Shown here: positions 1,637 through 5,957 of the stretch, piece by piece
Layout: each line of letters starts with the position of its first letter
How positions within the stretch are numbered: the stretch's first letter is position 1
Source: a virus
Lineage: Duplodnaviria; Heunggongvirae; Uroviricota; Caudoviricetes
DNA length: 7,011 nt
Virus record (IMG/VR): IMGVR_UViG_2690316343_000007
Strand: one strand, 5' to 3'
Made by a program: the position numbers and the translations under genes
The notes under the pieces: generated by a model
What the model was told of the DNA's origin: nothing
Seen by the model: only the letters and a program-made list of their open reading frames with translations
The model's database searches: none

Positions 1637-1677
1637 CTATGGGCGTTTTATGCCTGACGTTAGAAGAGTTTCTACAA

Positions 1678-1699
1678 CCCGCCGCCGAGCGGGTTTTTT
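1678..1699 (+). terminator. intrinsic terminator (tR'-like) about 40 nt after the Q stop codon
   Basis: GC-rich stem CCCGC(1678-1682)/GCGGG(1689-1693) with loop CGCCGA, followed by TTTTTT (1694-1699). Confidence 0.5.
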
Positions 1700-1772
1700 A
1701 TGACTGAAATCGCGTCAGTACAGTAAACGCGCTGGTGGCGGTGAATACCTGTCTTTCAGCTTGCTGGCTTTT

Positions 1773-1959
1773 NNNNNNNNNNNNNNNNNNNNNNNNNNNN
1801 NNNNNNNNNNNNNNNNNNNNNNNNNNNNNNNNNNNNNNNNNNNNNNNNNNNNNNNNNNNNNNNNNNNNNNNNNNNNNNNNNNNNNNNNNNNNNNNNNNNN
1901 NNNNNNNNNNNNNNNNNNNNNNNNNNNNNNNNNNNNNNNNNNNNNNNNNNNNNNNNNNN
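1773..1959. other. unresolved sequence: run of 187 N, flanked on both sides by an identical 53-bp sequence (1720-1772 and 1960-2012)
   Basis: Read directly from the sequence. The two ORFs in the supplied track that span this run are artefacts of translating N. Confidence 0.99.
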
Positions 1960-2059
1960 ACAGTAAACGCGCTGGTGGCGGTGAATACCTGTCTTTCAGC
2001 TTGCTGGCTTTTTCGACAAGAGTTATTGGTGTGTCACGTTAACCGGAAAAGGAAAAGAC

Positions 2060-2257
2060 ATGCTAAAACAGCAGGATATGACAGAAACCGCCAGAGTGGT
2101 GTTTAATGAATTAAGCGTTACCGAACCGGCGACAGTCGGGGAGATAGCGCAGAATACTTACCTTTCACGCGAACGCTGCCAGTTAATACTGACCCAGCTG
2201 GTTATGGCGGGTCTGGCAGACTATCAGTTCGGTTGTTACAGACGCCTTCCGCAGTGA
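2060..2257 (+). CDS. small putative winged-helix DNA-binding protein (65 aa), function unknown
   Basis: AGGA at 2050-2053 lies 6 nt upstream of the ATG. The segment ATVGEIAQNTYLSRERCQLILTQLVMAGLA looks like a helix-turn-helix recognition region (PapI/FaeA-like by eye). The stop codon sits inside an intrinsic terminator. Confidence 0.5.
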   Translation: MLKQQDMTETARVVFNELSVTEPATVGEIAQNTYLSRERCQLILTQLVMAGLADYQFGCYRRLPQ

Positions 2258-2267
2258 AGGCTTTTTT
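2244..2267 (+). terminator. intrinsic terminator closing the small winged-helix gene
   Basis: Stem GCCTTC(2244-2249)/GAAGGC(2256-2261), 6-nt loop, then TTTTTT (2262-2267). Confidence 0.5.
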
Positions 2268-2270
2268 ATT

Positions 2271-2281
2271 TGTGGTAAATG
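2271..2281 (+). promoter_or_regulatory. candidate extended -10 promoter for the methyltransferase gene
   Basis: TGTGGTAAATG, i.e. TG-n-TAAATG. The same decamer TGTGGTAAAT also occurs at 1618-1627 in the candidate pR'. No convincing -35. Confidence 0.3.
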
Positions 2282-2284
2282 GGC

Positions 2285-2315
2285 GGCTGGTGGGTGTTAG
2301 GGGCACCCACCAGCC
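2285..2315. repeat. perfect 12-bp inverted repeat (stem-loop) in the methyltransferase leader
   Basis: GGCTGGTGGGTG (2285-2296), loop TTAGGGG, CACCCACCAGCC (2304-2315). No U-tract follows. A second hairpin CTGCTTT/AAAGCAG lies at 2357-2375. Confidence 0.8.
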
Positions 2316-2407
2316 ATCTGCTCATGCGTTGGGTTCACAAGCAAACCTCAGGCCCACTGCTTTGCGCAAAAGCAGAATGAGCCTATCAGAGACAGGCTTA
2401 ATGATCC

Positions 2408-3466
2408 ATGCTTAATACTGTAAAAATATCCAGTTGTGAGTTAATCAACGCCGACTGCCTGGAATTTATCCGGTCGTTACCCGAAAATTCTGTTGACCTG
2501 ATAGTCACGGACCCGCCGTACTTTAAAGTGAAGCCTGAGGGCTGGGATAACCAGTGGAAGGGCGACGATGATTACCTGAAGTGGCTGGACCAGTGTCTGG
2601 CGCAGTTCTGGCGGGTGCTGAAACCTGCCGGAAGTCTTTACCTGTTCTGTGGTCATCGCCTGGCATCTGATATCGAAATCATGATGCGTGAACGCTTCAG
2701 TGTGCTGAACCATATTATCTGGGCGAAGCCGTCCGGACGCTGGAACGGATGCAACAAGGAAAGCCTGCGGGCGTATTTCCCCGCCACAGAGCGCATTCTG
2801 TTCGCGGAACATTATCAGGGGCCGTATCGTCCGAAAGATGCCGGGTATGCGGCGAAGGGCAGTGCACTGAAACAGCATGTGATGGCCCCGCTGATTTCTT
2901 ACTTTCGTGATGCGCGAGCTGCCCTGGGGATAACGGCAAAACAGATTGCAGATGCCACAGGAAAGAAAAACATGGTGTCGCACTGGTTCAGTGCCGGTCA
3001 GTGGCAGTTGCCGAATGAAAGCGATTATCTGAAATTACAGGCGCTGTTTGCCCGGGTGGCAGAAGAGAAGCATCGGCGTGGTGAACTGGAAAAGCTCCAC
3101 CACCAGCTGGTGGATACGTATACCTCACTGAACCGGCAGTATGCGGAGCTGCTGAGTGAATATAAACATCTGCGGCGGTATTTTGGCGTGACGGTGCAGG
3201 TGCCGTATACCGATGTGTGGACGCATAAACCGGTGCAGTTCTATCCCGGGAAACATCCGTGCGAAAAACCGGCAGAAATGCTGCAGCAGATAATCAGCGC
3301 TAGCAGTCGTCCGGGTGACCTGATTGCAGATTTTTTCATGGGGTTGGGTTCGACAGTGAAAGCGGCACTGGCGCTCGGGCGTCGTGCAATTGGCGTTGAG
3401 CTGGAGACTGAACGTTTTGAGCAGACGGTTCGGGAAGTACAGGATTTAGTCAGCCAGAACGGATGA
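2408..3466 (+). CDS. beta-class DNA methyltransferase (N6-adenine/N4-cytosine family; DPPY motif suggests N6-adenine), apparently orphan
   Basis: 352-aa ORF. Catalytic motif IV (VDLIVTDPPYF) is near the N-terminus and the AdoMet-binding motif I (DLIADFFMGLGST) near the C-terminus, the beta-class order. A coiled-coil-like insert lies between them. No restriction endonuclease candidate is adjacent in the window. Confidence 0.88.
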   Translation: MLNTVKISSCELINADCLEFIRSLPENSVDLIVTDPPYFKVKPEGWDNQWKGDDDYLKWLDQCLAQFWRVLKPAGSLYLFCGHRLASDIEIMMRERFSVLNHIIWAKPSGRWNGCNKESLRAYFPATERILFAEHYQGPYRPKDAGYAAKGSALKQHVMAPLISYFRDARAALGITAKQIADATGKKNMVSHWFSAGQWQLPNESDYLKLQALFARVAEEKHRRGELEKLHHQLVDTYTSLNRQYAELLSEYKHLRRYFGVTVQVPYTDVWTHKPVQFYPGKHPCEKPAEMLQQIISASSRPGDLIADFFMGLGSTVKAALALGRRAIGVELETERFEQTVREVQDLVSQNG

Positions 3467-3468
3467 TA

Positions 3469-3497
3469 TTGAAGAATTAATTACGCGTCGTTATTAT
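3469..3497 (+). promoter_or_regulatory. sigma70-type promoter for the tRNA cluster
   Basis: TTGAAG (3469-3474), 17-nt spacer, TATTAT (3492-3497), then a GC-rich discriminator (GCGGCTCC) placing the start just before the first tRNA at 3507. Confidence 0.45.
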
Positions 3498-3506
3498 GCG
3501 GCTCCC

Positions 3507-3582
3507 GGCCCTTTAGCTCAGTGGTGAGAGCGAGCGACTCATAATCGCCAGGTCGCTGGTTCAAATCCAGCAAGGGCCACCA
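3507..3582 (+). tRNA. ileZ: tRNA with CAU anticodon, most likely tRNA-Ile2 (lysidine type), alternatively tRNA-Met; encoded CCA
   Basis: Cloverleaf folded by hand: acceptor GGCCCTT/AAGGGCC, D-stem GCTC/GAGC, anticodon loop CTCATAA, T-arm GCTGG-TTCAAAT-CCAGC. Near-identical in outline to E. coli ileX as I recall it. Symbol follows the Stx-phage cluster naming and is tentative. Confidence 0.85.
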
Positions 3583-3589
3583 TCACATA

Positions 3590-3666
3590 CCGCCATTAGC
3601 TCATCAGGAAAGAGCGCCAGCCTTCGAAGCTGGCTGCGCGGGGTTCAAGTCCCCGATGGCGGTCCA
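3590..3666 (+). tRNA. argN: tRNA-Arg (anticodon UCG, reads CGA); encoded CCA
   Basis: Acceptor CCGCCAT/ATGGCGG (7 bp, perfect), anticodon stem CCAGC/GCTGG with loop CTTCGAA, T-arm CGGGG-TTCAAGT-CCCCG. Symbol is tentative and based on order within the cluster. Confidence 0.8.
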
Positions 3667-3679
3667 TTATCTGCATCAT

Positions 3680-3756
3680 GCGTTGTTAGCTCAGCCGGAC
3701 AGAGCAATTGCCTTCTAAGCAATCGGTCACTGGTTCGAATCCAGTACAGCGCGCCA
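3680..3756 (+). tRNA. argO: tRNA-Arg (anticodon UCU, reads AGA); encoded CCA
   Basis: Acceptor GCGTTGT/ACAGCGC (one G-U pair), anticodon stem ATTGC/GCAAT with loop CTTCTAA, T-arm ACTGG-TTCGAAT-CCAGT. Symbol tentative. Confidence 0.8.
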
Positions 3757-3866
3757 TATTCATTCTTCCAGATTCCTTCCGGCAGAGCCTTATACTGAAA
3801 TATACCTGGCTCAGGATATTGTTGAAAATATTTTATGTTTGTCAAAAATAAAAGTTCTGTTAAGTA

Positions 3867-4220
3867 TTGATTGAGTGTTTGTTATACGGTCTAATGGTTT
3901 TTTCAGCATTAAATATTTATCATTCATATGGTGTGGGTAGAGTGAATATTGATGAGGCGTCGGGGTGTTTCATCCTTAGGCAGCGTATTGATATAGTCAA
4001 TGCAGCACGAGCAAAGGCCTTCAGCCGTTTGACAGTTTTGTTCTGTACTCCTGATCGTCTTTCGGGAAGAGACGTTATTATTCTGAATAGTGATGCTATA
4101 CAGAGGGTTTGCGATGAGTTCATGGTTGCTAATTCAGAATTATTTGCTCTTGTTCAGGAGTACAACAGAATAGCCAGGACCTGTGGTATGGATGAACTTC
4201 GGATTACTCATCTGGGGTAG
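3867..4220 (+). CDS. hypothetical protein at the accessory locus (117 aa from TTG 3867; about 109 aa if the first in-frame ATG at 3890 is used); function unknown
   Basis: Only sizeable ORF between the tRNA cluster and the repeat. Preceded by a very AT-rich intergenic stretch (3757-3866). No recognisable motif, no hydrophobic segment, start codon and RBS weak. Confidence 0.4.
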   Translation: MIECLLYGLMVFSALNIYHSYGVGRVNIDEASGCFILRQRIDIVNAARAKAFSRLTVLFCTPDRLSGRDVIILNSDAIQRVCDEFMVANSELFALVQEYNRIARTCGMDELRITHLG

Positions 4221-4367
4221 ATACATATCTGGATTATCACCTGTTACGGTAAAAAGTGATTGCTTACTGTTTTTGTGAATGGCATTGCAGCAGCCGGATA
4301 ATGTCAGTGCTGGCTGACGGTGTGCTGGTGGCGGGTGTGGTGGTTGTTGCTTTCCCGTTGCTGAAAA

Positions 4368-4631
4368 AGAAAACGCCAGACTGTTAGCCGGGTATCAGTT
4401 AGCGGGAGAAATTTTTAAATACTTCACAATTCAGGCGGTTGACTGTTGTCTGGTTTGCGGGGAGTTTGTTAAAAGAAACTGGCATGGTGAATCCCCCTGT
4501 GCGGAGGGGCAATCAGCGAGTAGGTATATGGGATAATCGCGGATTCAGGTGCTGGTACTGAATTCACCGGGAGGCACCCGGCATCATGCAATGGCACATA
4601 GCGCCACTCTCCAGCCCTCTCCGGAGGGGCT
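4368..4631 (+). repeat. direct repeat copy A (~264 bp), partner of 5958-6222
   Basis: Aligned by eye to 5958-6222 at an offset of 1590: one substitution (T4584 vs C6174), one 1-nt indel in the terminal hairpin, and one N in copy B. Contains several hairpins (4494-4509, 4541-4565, 4567-4581). Confidence 0.95.
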
Positions 4632-4636
4632 TTTCT
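4613..4636 (+). terminator. intrinsic-terminator-like hairpin at the 3' end of repeat copy A
   Basis: AGCCCTC...GAGGGGCT stem with one bulged base and a TCCG loop, followed by TTTTCTGTG. Confidence 0.4.
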
Positions 4637-4863
4637 GTGCCGGATACATCACAGTTTCTGGAACCTTAGGTACTACAGTATCAGTCAGGGTGCTATATTT
4701 TCAGATGTGATGAAAGCCTGTCAGCAGGCAGGGCGTATCGGAAATGACCCAGTAGAGAAAACGTTGACTCAGATACCGGTGCTGAGTTACCGGGAAACCG
4801 GCATCACATGACCGCTATCCTGAGGTGTACTGGCAATAGCGGACACTACCATTTGTTCTTTTT

Positions 4864-5682
4864 TTAAGCAGCCATCTGATGATATTTTTCCCTGAAGGCT
4901 GCCGGGGAGATATTCCCCAGACGAGAGTGACGACGCTGACGATTGTAGAAAATCTCAATGTATTCCCGTATTACTGAGATGGCTTCATCCCGGTTATTAA
5001 AACGATAGTGGCTCAGGCTCTCATTTTTCAGCGTTCCCCAGAAGCTTTCCATCGGAGCGTTGTCGTAACAGTTACCTTTACGCGACATTGATGTTTTCAG
5101 ACCAGACTGCTCCTGTATGACCCGGTAATCGTATGCGCAGTACTGTGAACCTCGATCAGAGTGGTGGATTAGCCCGGCAGGTGGGCGCTGGCTCCTGAGC
5201 GCCATAAACAGGGCTTTACCTGTCAGCTCTTTTGTCATGCGCTCTCCCATGGCGTAGCCGACAATTTCGCACGTATAAACATCTTTGATGCCAGCGAGGT
5301 ACAACCATCCCTCCTGTGTGGCAACATACGTCAGGTCCGCCACCCAGACCTGATTTGGTGCTGTAGGAGCGAACGTCTGGTTCAGCAGATTTGGCGCAAC
5401 TGGCAGATTGTGGTTCGAGTTCGTAGTCGCTCTGAACTTGCGTTTCTGCTTACAGCGTAGCCTTAGCTCCTTACGAAGACGTGCCAGTCGGTCACGACCA
5501 ACGATGATGCCATTCTCTGCCAGCTCCGTCTGGAGCCGCCGGGTTCCATATGTTTCGCGAGTGCGGATATGTGCCACCTTAATCTCCAGTTTTAGCCGCT
5601 CATCACTTTGTTTTCTGTCTGAGGGTTCATGCTGTACCCAGTTGTAATAACCGCTCCTGGATACACCAAATACCTGACACAT
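4864..5682 (-). CDS. IS3-family transposase OrfB (DDE/RNase-H-fold catalytic domain)
   Basis: 272-aa ORF with the characteristic WVADLTY, HSDRGSQY and CYDNAPMESFWGTLKNE segments. Its frame is open upstream back to the slippery site, consistent with OrfAB fusion by a -1 frameshift. Confidence 0.9.
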   Translation of the reverse strand: MCQVFGVSRSGYYNWVQHEPSDRKQSDERLKLEIKVAHIRTRETYGTRRLQTELAENGIIVGRDRLARLRKELRLRCKQKRKFRATTNSNHNLPVAPNLLNQTFAPTAPNQVWVADLTYVATQEGWLYLAGIKDVYTCEIVGYAMGERMTKELTGKALFMALRSQRPPAGLIHHSDRGSQYCAYDYRVIQEQSGLKTSMSRKGNCYDNAPMESFWGTLKNESLSHYRFNNRDEAISVIREYIEIFYNRQRRHSRLGNISPAAFREKYHQMAA

Positions 5683-5717
5683 CGCTTCAATGGGAAATTG
5701 TTGTCGCCATTGTTCGA

Positions 5718-5957
5718 TTAACGCGTATTTTTCAGCGACTCCTGTGCAAAATACGCTGTTGCTTTTTTTAATATATCTCGCTCAAGGCGAGCTTCATTTA
5801 ACGCCTTACGCAGTTGCAGAATTTCAGATTCCAGTTCAGCCACCGTGCGGGAACCAGGAGTACCGAGCCCTTTTCTGGCGGCGGTAACCCATTGTCCTAA
5901 AGTGCCTTCAGGAAGAGATAATCGGGAAGCGCCTTCACTGATCGAAAGTTGATTTTC
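5718..5957 (-). pseudogene. IS3-family transposase orfA, 5'-truncated (about 79 codons, no start codon)
   Basis: Minus-strand translation gives ...ENQLSISEGASRLSLPEGTLGQWVTAARKGLGTPGSRTVAELESEILQLRKALNEARLERDILKKATAYFAQESLKNTR-stop, an HTH plus leucine-zipper OrfA C-terminus. The upstream frame runs into repeat sequence with no Met. Confidence 0.75.
5763..5769 (-). other. programmed -1 ribosomal frameshift site (A AAA AAA heptamer) linking orfA to orfB
   Basis: Seven consecutive T on the plus strand (A7 on the coding strand) inside the orfA 3' end. A -1 shift here reads KKSNSVFCTGVAEKYALIEQWRQQFPIEAMCQVFGVS into OrfB with no stop. Confidence 0.6.

Follow-up and report, generated by a model that had tools for sequence, protein, structure and literature searches.

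We analyzed a 7,011-nucleotide (nt) stretch of the Caudoviricetes record IMGVR_UViG_2690316343_000007 (the whole stretch is called the window here), which is the late-regulatory region of an Escherichia coli lambdoid (Qin/DLP12-like) prophage. The slot equivalent to that of the Shiga toxin genes (stx) is occupied by a plus-strand gene for a protein of 92 amino acids. With a probability of about 0.6, we regard it as a real accessory gene, or moron, of an uncharacterized phage family, which would be expressed as a cassette and whose product would act by binding. The phage family had already been catalogued and the exact protein deposited; the corrected start, the link between family members, and the cassette pattern are added here.

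The gene encodes 92 amino acids

A first-pass annotation of the window had placed an open reading frame (ORF) of 117 codons at positions 3867 to 4220. The ORF listing does contain such a frame on the plus strand with a TTG start, but comparison of homologs puts the true coding sequence (CDS) at positions 3942 to 4220, with a GTG start and a product of 92 amino acids (MNIDEASGCF...RITHLG). Homologs keep the reading frame, and the gene is real and not a fragment of a longer one. Three E. coli variants with DNA 24 to 33% diverged (the window type; the L003 type, comprising L003, L005, and L009; and L008, 76% identical) each have exactly 92 codons with zero insertions or deletions. The ratio of nonsynonymous to synonymous substitution rates (dN/dS) is 0.26 to 0.27 in all three pairwise comparisons of these cores, and differences at first, second, and third codon positions (24/23/43, 19/19/39, and 24/18/40) show an approximately twofold excess at the third. 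The two shifted frames give dN/dS values of 0.8 to 1.2 and contain 5 to 17 stop codons. In the alignment of the window with L003, the last 91 aligned codons have a dN/dS of 0.26 and position-specific differences of 24/23/43, compared with 0.86 and 11/10/12 for the first 25 codons; by this measure, the 25-codon extension (3867 to 3941) evolves like noncoding DNA.

Several further observations place the start at GTG 3942. The Prokaryotic Genome Annotation Pipeline (PGAP) calls a gene of 92 amino acids from the homologous GTG in L008 (WP_001017777.1), where AGGAG lies 4 nt before the GTG and an in-frame TGA lies 10 codons upstream of it. All distant homologs begin at the NIDE/INFE position, which corresponds to GTG 3942, and an AlphaFold model of the 117-amino-acid version is disordered over residues 1 to 23, with a predicted local distance difference test score (pLDDT) below 50. 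In a set of 80 near-identical copies, the upstream 110 nt carry 13 polymorphic sites and the 75-nt extension carries 6, of which 5 are nonsynonymous. The 276-nt core has 9, where 5 changes are synonymous and 5 are nonsynonymous at 4 sites; the flanks have 19 in 185 nt. Among copies that span the full 644-nt query, 72 of 73 are equal in length. Two minus-strand ORFs (3811 to 3927 and 3920 to 4123) were set aside, since the substitutions are codon periodic in the plus frame alone, and a terminator-like hairpin inside the CDS (4056 to 4074) was rejected as not conserved in L003.

A phage protein family with a predicted helical hairpin

The first protein searches returned just close E. coli and Shigella copies and two 56%-identical proteins. 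A full HMMER scan and a profile search extended this to a family of proteins of 91 to 110 amino acids with identity down to 20%; homologs with 20 to 63% identity occur in Escherichia, Citrobacter, Salmonella, Morganella, Serratia, and Xenorhabdus. The hidden Markov model (HMM) of PHROG 2873 matches residues 1 to 92 on profile positions 17 to 108 of 108 (E = 5.6e-58, 194.8 bits), and the profile's initial 16 positions are the counterpart of the N-terminal extension, for which no support was found. A match to PHROG 4827 (E = 2e-5) was also obtained; both are catalogued phage families without an assigned function. A tblastn search with a Serratia-type member identified Sb55 of Salmonella phage ST64B (AAL25933.1) as a family relative. 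The exact 92-amino-acid sequence occurs on 210 contigs in GenBank/UniRef, labeled as a hypothetical protein, and a literature search on TciA/TciB/DUF3927, Sb55, or the protein sequences themselves returned nothing relevant.

Pfam, NCBIfam, PADLOC, and PDB sequence profile searches with the 117- and 92-amino-acid products and 20 relatives yielded nothing significant, and the first-pass description of a product without a recognizable motif holds apart from the PHROG assignments. PADLOC defense HMMs did not match the window protein and hit two relatives at chance level only (E = 0.009 and 0.019). The Pfam models of PerC/Pch, IraP, Hha, H-NS, and Rop were absent from the matches at E ≤ 1 for 20 family members. 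No toxin or enzyme motif was found in the 92-amino-acid protein in the Pfam, NCBIfam, and PDB searches, and it is judged not to be a toxin, in line with the first-pass annotation, which saw no toxin-like ORF in this interval. No signal peptide or membrane segment was seen in the sequence by eye, with no predictor run.

The protein has a mass of ~10 kDa, is slightly acidic (isoelectric point [pI] of 5.7), and is rather hydrophobic (grand average of hydropathy, +0.13). Across the family, R23, N64, and N75 are invariant, and C9, L12, E66, V71, and A78, as well as the Y of an EYN motif, are nearly invariant. AlphaFold, run on the 92 residues with a 20-sequence alignment, predicts a generic antiparallel two-helix coiled-coil hairpin with a pLDDT of 87.9 and a predicted template modeling score of 0.73; the helices span residues 3 to 33 and 50 to 81, joined by a loop (34 to 49) with a conserved TPDR and followed by a short tail. 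The best PDB sequence profile matches were to GapR/UPF0335 (DUF2312). These were rejected, as they are not significant (E = 0.12 to 0.43), cover the first helix only, and leave the second half of the protein unaligned; in contrast to GapR/UPF0335, the family is mostly neutral to acidic.

Relatives occur as cassettes in prophages and on plasmids

Prophages of Citrobacter, Salmonella, Morganella, and Serratia carry the gene in the stretch from Q to the holin or lysozyme genes. Strong intrinsic terminators follow within ~30 to 110 nt of the stop codon in 9 of 12 distinct homolog loci (-7 to -17 kcal/mol; L008, L012, L111, L019, L108, L112, L103, L104, and L105). Serratia-type genes have TGTATAAT ~33 nt upstream of the ATG plus an AAAGGA ribosome-binding site, and the Morganella copy has ATACAAT at the position of the promoter element. 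In Serratia, the gene sits between bracketing terminators, downstream of a PR'-like promoter and a first terminator. Judged from these elements, the architecture is the classic moron pattern: across genera, the gene would form a self-contained cassette in the lambdoid late region near lysis genes, or on plasmids, and in relatives it would come with a -10 element of its own and, in most cases, an intrinsic terminator.

A stretch of ~45 nt (CACATCAAAAAC(C)ACAGAGCCTTTCAGG) is conserved just past the terminators of E. coli, Citrobacter, and Salmonella homologs (L008, 3360 to 3400; L012, ~6360 to 6400; L111, ~5360 to 5400). In Citrobacter it lies upstream of a TerB-like (tciA) gene, and it could be a small RNA (sRNA) or a leader.

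Family members are also found outside phage late operons. The Xenorhabdus copy adjoins a transposase, at a site flanked by insertion sequences (IS) and without lysis genes. Diverged members occur on E. coli and E. albertii plasmids (L106, 4501 to 4776; L107, 4501 to 4761), where they are annotated only as hypothetical. The first plasmid group is 34% identical to the window protein and neighbors a K88-like fimbrial operon that includes a PapB regulator. The second, ~40% identical to the first plasmid copy, directly follows bfpD-E-F-P-H-like type IV pilus genes, and its member is absent from the PLSDB gene table. The copy beside the K88-like operon was considered as a possible homolog of AfrS, the small partner of the AraC-like AfrR of AF/R1 pili, but no AraC gene lies upstream of it and a literature search gave nothing usable.

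Distribution of the window type in E. coli

Copies of the window type (at least 95% identity) are present in 1,183 of 5,426 complete E. coli genomes (~22%), and variants with 60 to 80% identity are present in ~128 more. Among species representatives, the window type is confined to Escherichia, plus one probably misbinned metagenome-assembled genome (MAG); exact and partial copies have also been deposited from Shigella. A 62%-identical homolog lies on a 2.7-kb contig of a MAG labeled "Bacillota bacterium" (L114, 1039 to 1314), which is most likely misbinned enterobacterial prophage DNA.

The order of tRNAs, 92-amino-acid gene, DUF3927 gene, and STnc100 sRNA gene is nearly invariant in ~80 viral contig loci, and the DUF3927 gene follows in all window-type loci. 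Downstream of STnc100 lie either IraM-like and DUF1737 genes or a TolA-like gene, and then the holin gene. In RefSeq loci L001, L005, and L006, the window-type and L003-type copies are unannotated, while L008, with AGGAG, is annotated; there may be a systematic annotation gap over about one-fifth of E. coli genomes.

Genetic context and assembly of the window

The features of the window are as follows (strand as far as assigned).

411-785, RusA gene
782-1636, Q antiterminator gene (PF03589, E = 7e-55)
between Q and the methyltransferase gene, TrmB-like ORF of 65 amino acids (PHROG 331)
2408-3466, N6/N4 DNA methyltransferase gene
3469-3497, plus strand, sigma-70 promoter-like site TTGAAG-17-TATTAT (consensus match, 9/12), ending ~10 nt before the first tRNA
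3507-3582, plus strand, tRNA(CAT), called Met by ARAGORN; the homologous gene in RefSeq is tRNA-Ile
3590-3666, plus strand, tRNA-Arg(TCG)
3680-3756, plus strand, tRNA-Arg(TCT)
3757-3941, plus strand, AT-rich noncoding leader, including the spurious 25-codon extension (3867-3941)
3918-3923, plus strand, -10-like hexamer TATCAT, 18 nt upstream of the GTG
3935-3938, plus strand, weak Shine-Dalgarno-like GGGT; AGGAG at the homologous position in L008
3942-4220, plus strand, 92-amino-acid gene, GTG start
4256-4387, plus strand, DUF3927 gene, 43 amino acids with one hydrophobic segment (PF13064, E = 1.7e-27, 95.6 bits against a cutoff of 25; PHROG 1470, "TciB-like," E = 7.8e-13)
4453-4642, plus strand, STnc100 sRNA gene, first full-length copy (RF02076, 122.5 bits against a gathering score of 47)
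4681-4869, weak third STnc100 match
4816-5958, partial IS3-family element (orfB, 4864-5682, minus strand, and a truncated orfA)
6043-6232, STnc100 sRNA gene, second full-length copy (RF02076, 132 bits)
6258-6593, minus strand, IraM-like anti-adaptor gene, 111 amino acids, 34.5% GC (NF007393, E = 4.7e-48)
from 6853, DUF1737 gene (MAFKHYDVVRAA...), interrupted at ~6976 by an IS end

The first-pass annotation had read this region as Q and three tRNAs next to the moron slot of Shiga toxin phages, bounded on the right by a DUF1737-like gene. The DUF1737 gene is indeed there; the IS end that cuts it is identical to that at 4816 to 4851. The three tRNAs do lie directly upstream of the 92-amino-acid gene, but Q is not adjacent to them: ~1.8 to 1.9 kb, filled by the TrmB-like ORF and the methyltransferase gene, separates the two. 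In the closest complete genome (L001, 4604 to 4748), the tRNAs directly follow Q, and the window has ~1.8 kb extra (1637 to 3466); the same arrangement of TrmB-like ORF and methyltransferase gene between Q and the tRNAs is found in Shiga toxin-producing E. coli and Morganella prophages. Assignment to a moron slot agrees with the description of the site downstream of Q and PR' as an insertion-tolerant "moron" site (PMC4104026) and with its differing content in related prophages. The O157-like prophage L007 and phage JLK-2012 share the Q/tRNA/lysis frame but lack the gene, and other cargo at the slot includes Psr-type AraC regulators, tciA/tciB, NanS-type esterases, and TolA-like and IraM-like genes. 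The first-pass interval, treated as holding a single ORF, also contains a second gene, that for DUF3927, which its end at position 4367 cuts. Its reported AT richness is borne out: GC content is 31.8% at 3757 to 3866, 41% in the 117-codon ORF, and 44% in the 92-amino-acid CDS, versus 48% for the window. The neighboring methyltransferase (53%) and DUF3927 (51%) genes differ in this from the CDS and its leader.

The window is a scaffolded draft, within which positions 3467 to 4634 are contiguous and 96.7% identical to one complete genome; the assembly joins leave the 92-amino-acid gene itself unaffected. A run of N at 1773 to 1959 has identical 53-nt copies on either side (1720 to 2012), and the 248 nt at 4370 to 4617 recur as an exact copy after a single N at 5959 (4370 to 6207), both signs of scaffold joins. 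Segment 4635 to 5958 is probably an alternative path from another prophage, collapsed at the repeat, because the complete genome aligns only with 408 to 1701, 3467 to 4634, and 5960 to 6983.

Proposed transcription of the window-type gene

After induction, late expression would come from strong read-through from Q-modified PR', with weaker expression in the lysogen from the tRNA promoter-like site (3469 to 3497) and/or TATCAT (3918 to 3923). The former, the better promoter-like site of the two, ends so close to the first tRNA that the tRNAs may have expression in the lysogen that does not depend on the late promoter, and transcription from this site could continue through the tRNAs into the 92-amino-acid gene. 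The AT-rich stretch that had been called promoter-like contains weak matches (9/12 at 3822 to 3849); promoter-like sites in this AT-rich region number 6, against 2.3 ± 1.6 expected. TATCAT is kept only as a candidate because its -35 element is poor. The hexamer is in register in three diverged variants (TATCAT in the window, TATAAT in L003, and TATCAT in L008), whose upstream 40 nt align without gaps, and positions 3914 to 3933 have zero polymorphic sites in 80 copies.

No terminator-like sites were predicted between 3757 and 4613 except the nonconserved hairpin inside the CDS, and the first convincing terminator 3' of the gene is the intrinsic terminator of STnc100 (4613 to 4631). As the window-type copy has no terminator of its own, read-through via the DUF3927 gene to this terminator is expected, so that the window type would form a composite unit from the tRNAs to STnc100. 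The STnc100 sRNA might derive from the 3' end of the transcript of the 92-amino-acid gene, given that its first copy supplies the first terminator downstream. The STnc100 family is related to the PasD sRNAs of enteropathogenic E. coli (EPEC) (bioRxiv 10.64898/2026.05.13.724894).

Proposed role of the protein

By analogy, and with low confidence, the product is most likely a small, soluble cytoplasmic protein with a binding or regulatory role. Action by binding is the likeliest mode because the protein is small and has no catalytic, DNA-binding, or membrane motif; a homodimeric four-helix bundle is probable because it is relatively hydrophobic, and such a bundle might sequester or modulate a host or phage protein. 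We infer this oligomeric state and binding mode, as we do the promoters. A regulatory role is the most economical guess because the neighbors at this slot are regulators of host physiology, and the mode of action may resemble theirs, namely, that of IraM-type anti-adaptors and Psr-type regulators. IraM-type anti-adaptors stabilize RpoS. Psr and PatE, both regulators encoded at this slot, govern gad acid resistance as well as type III secretion (PMC10877973). The adaptive or virulence function that the first-pass annotation expected of cargo at this site found no support: export signals, membrane segments, and toxin or enzyme motifs were not seen, and the predicted fold is generic.

Several observations weigh against an expressed moron with a binding role. 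Start signals in the window type are weak (GTG, GGGT at a spacing of only 3 nt, and a poor -35 element), and positions 4221 to 4255 lack a convincing hairpin and T run (best, -3.7 kcal/mol). A PGAP call of the gene is absent from the window-type RefSeq complete-genome rows listed (25 and 36). The placement of the gene with respect to the lysis genes varies, with Sb55 lying just after them in ST64B. Moreover, the net charge of the family is variable (pI of 4.8 to 9.9), and a uniform binding target for so variably charged a family is not obvious.

A bolder version, which we hold to be rather improbable, would see here a new mobile class of small regulators that bind a host regulator of stress or virulence (for example, a Psr/YdeO-type AraC protein or the RssB/RpoS pathway) and, in E. 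coli, are encoded on a composite tRNA-mRNA-sRNA transcript. If so, a composite transcript of tRNAs, mRNA, and 3' sRNA would occupy the Shiga toxin slot in about one-fifth of E. coli strains.

Alternative explanations

The 92-amino-acid protein could instead be a small partner (a cofactor or antifactor) of a Psr/PatE-type (YdeO-like) AraC regulator, with the window type left without the regulator gene. In the L003 type (L003/L005/L009), the GTG lies 93 nt downstream of the gene for a 241-amino-acid AraC-family regulator (Psr-like, YdeO-related), whose closest NCBIfam model is YdeO (E = 4e-35, well under that model's cutoff) and which is 59% identical to the same-slot regulator of an O157-like strain. 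The gad and type III secretion targets of the slot's Psr/PatE regulators, cited above, also fit. Fimbrial and type IV pilus loci, which the plasmid copies adjoin, are often AraC controlled. We nevertheless think this rather unlikely, as ~1,185 window-type E. coli genomes and the loci of Citrobacter, Salmonella, Morganella, and Serratia have no AraC gene alongside, the 92-amino-acid gene is missing from O157 psr loci, and homology to known AraC partners was not found. L003 has a perfect TATAAT between the two genes, and the 92-amino-acid gene may therefore be transcribed separately. A phage late function, such as help with lysis timing or late transcription, would suit a gene that adjoins the lysis cassette in late-operon orientation in five genera. 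However, a strong terminator and often other cargo separate the gene from the holin; it precedes the lysis genes in some phages and follows them in ST64B, and closely related prophages that share the lysis genes lack it. Its persistence on plasmids and at the IS-flanked Xenorhabdus site without lysis genes counts against a dedicated lysis or late-transcription role, and no membrane segment was seen in the protein, which leaves a late accessory function unlikely. Decay in the window type is similarly improbable: the weak start signals, the loss of the terminator present in relatives, the lack of a PGAP call, and occasional frameshifted or deleted database copies (P0004, P0008, P0009, P0013, and P0017) would fit an unexpressed relic of a once-functional moron, but polymorphism density among the 80 copies is lower in the core than in the flanks, and a nonsynonymous/synonymous ratio estimated from the counts at ~0.3 suggests purifying selection. 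Length uniformity in 72 of 73 full-span copies, the exact protein on 210 contigs, and presence in ~22% of complete genomes also speak against decay.

Two further readings concern the nature of the product. A protein of 117 residues from TTG 3867 (or 108 from ATG 3894) would have a hydrophobic N terminus (LLYGLMVFSAL) that might serve as a membrane anchor or signal, making the gene an exported virulence cargo. The frame is open from 3867 in the window and L003 types, and some gene callers choose longer forms (P0001 to P0006), but the dN/dS of 0.86 in the extension, the in-frame TGA of L008, the low pLDDT of residues 1 to 23, and the NIDE/INFE start of all distant homologs make this version very unlikely. 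Least probable of all is that what is conserved here is an RNA, either an sRNA or a leader acting in cis, and not a protein. The slot is rich in sRNAs, including STnc100/PasD, AgvB, and AsxR (PMC4104026; bioRxiv 10.64898/2026.05.13.724894), and an STnc100 copy lies 230 nt downstream. Against this, Rfam gave no matches in 3757 to 4255 even at E ≤ 1, codon-periodic substitutions occur in one frame only, protein homology extends to 20% identity across genera, beyond alignable DNA, and the 4056-to-4074 hairpin is not conserved in L003.

Implications and comparison with known systems

On the preferred reading of an accessory gene with a binding product, a common gene, apparently under purifying selection, occupies the accessory site of lambdoid prophages with the strongest induction. 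Its corrected coordinates (92 amino acids, GTG 3942) and the link to PHROG 2873/4827 and Sb55 make it a clean functional target. If its product modulates host regulators, as Psr and IraM do, it would add to the means by which prophages control E. coli stress physiology; otherwise, it would be one more hypothetical phage protein.

Among known systems, the small regulators IraP, IraM, PerC/Pch, Hha, Rop, and ANR/Aar are comparable by analogy only, with no sequence similarity to the 92-amino-acid protein detected in the Pfam scans, which covered PerC/Pch, IraP, Hha, and Rop. They are likewise proteins of 60 to 110 amino acids, largely helical and gained by horizontal transfer, whose binding target is a regulator, not DNA; an IraM-like gene shares the slot. 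ANR/Aar proteins bind an AraC-family activator and are encoded in its regulon, whereas here only one homolog type adjoins an AraC gene. Prefoldin beta subunits and other antiparallel coiled-coil hairpins are also among the closest known systems. Classical lambdoid morons (stx, psrA/psrB-type genes, nanS-p, and tciA/tciB) occupy the same slot after Q, PR', and the tRNA cluster, and likewise combine patchy presence with a promoter and terminator (for the 92-amino-acid gene, a candidate promoter and a terminator in most relatives) and a GC content below that of the flanks. Unlike them, the gene described here encodes an unrelated protein, and its window copy lacks its own terminator and is joined to DUF3927 and STnc100. 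PHROG 2873/4827 and Sb55 are the closest counterparts, with Sb55 differing in that its gene sits after and not before the lysis cassette of ST64B; sequence homology, a length of 91 to 110 amino acids, conserved positions, and a late-region location are common to all.

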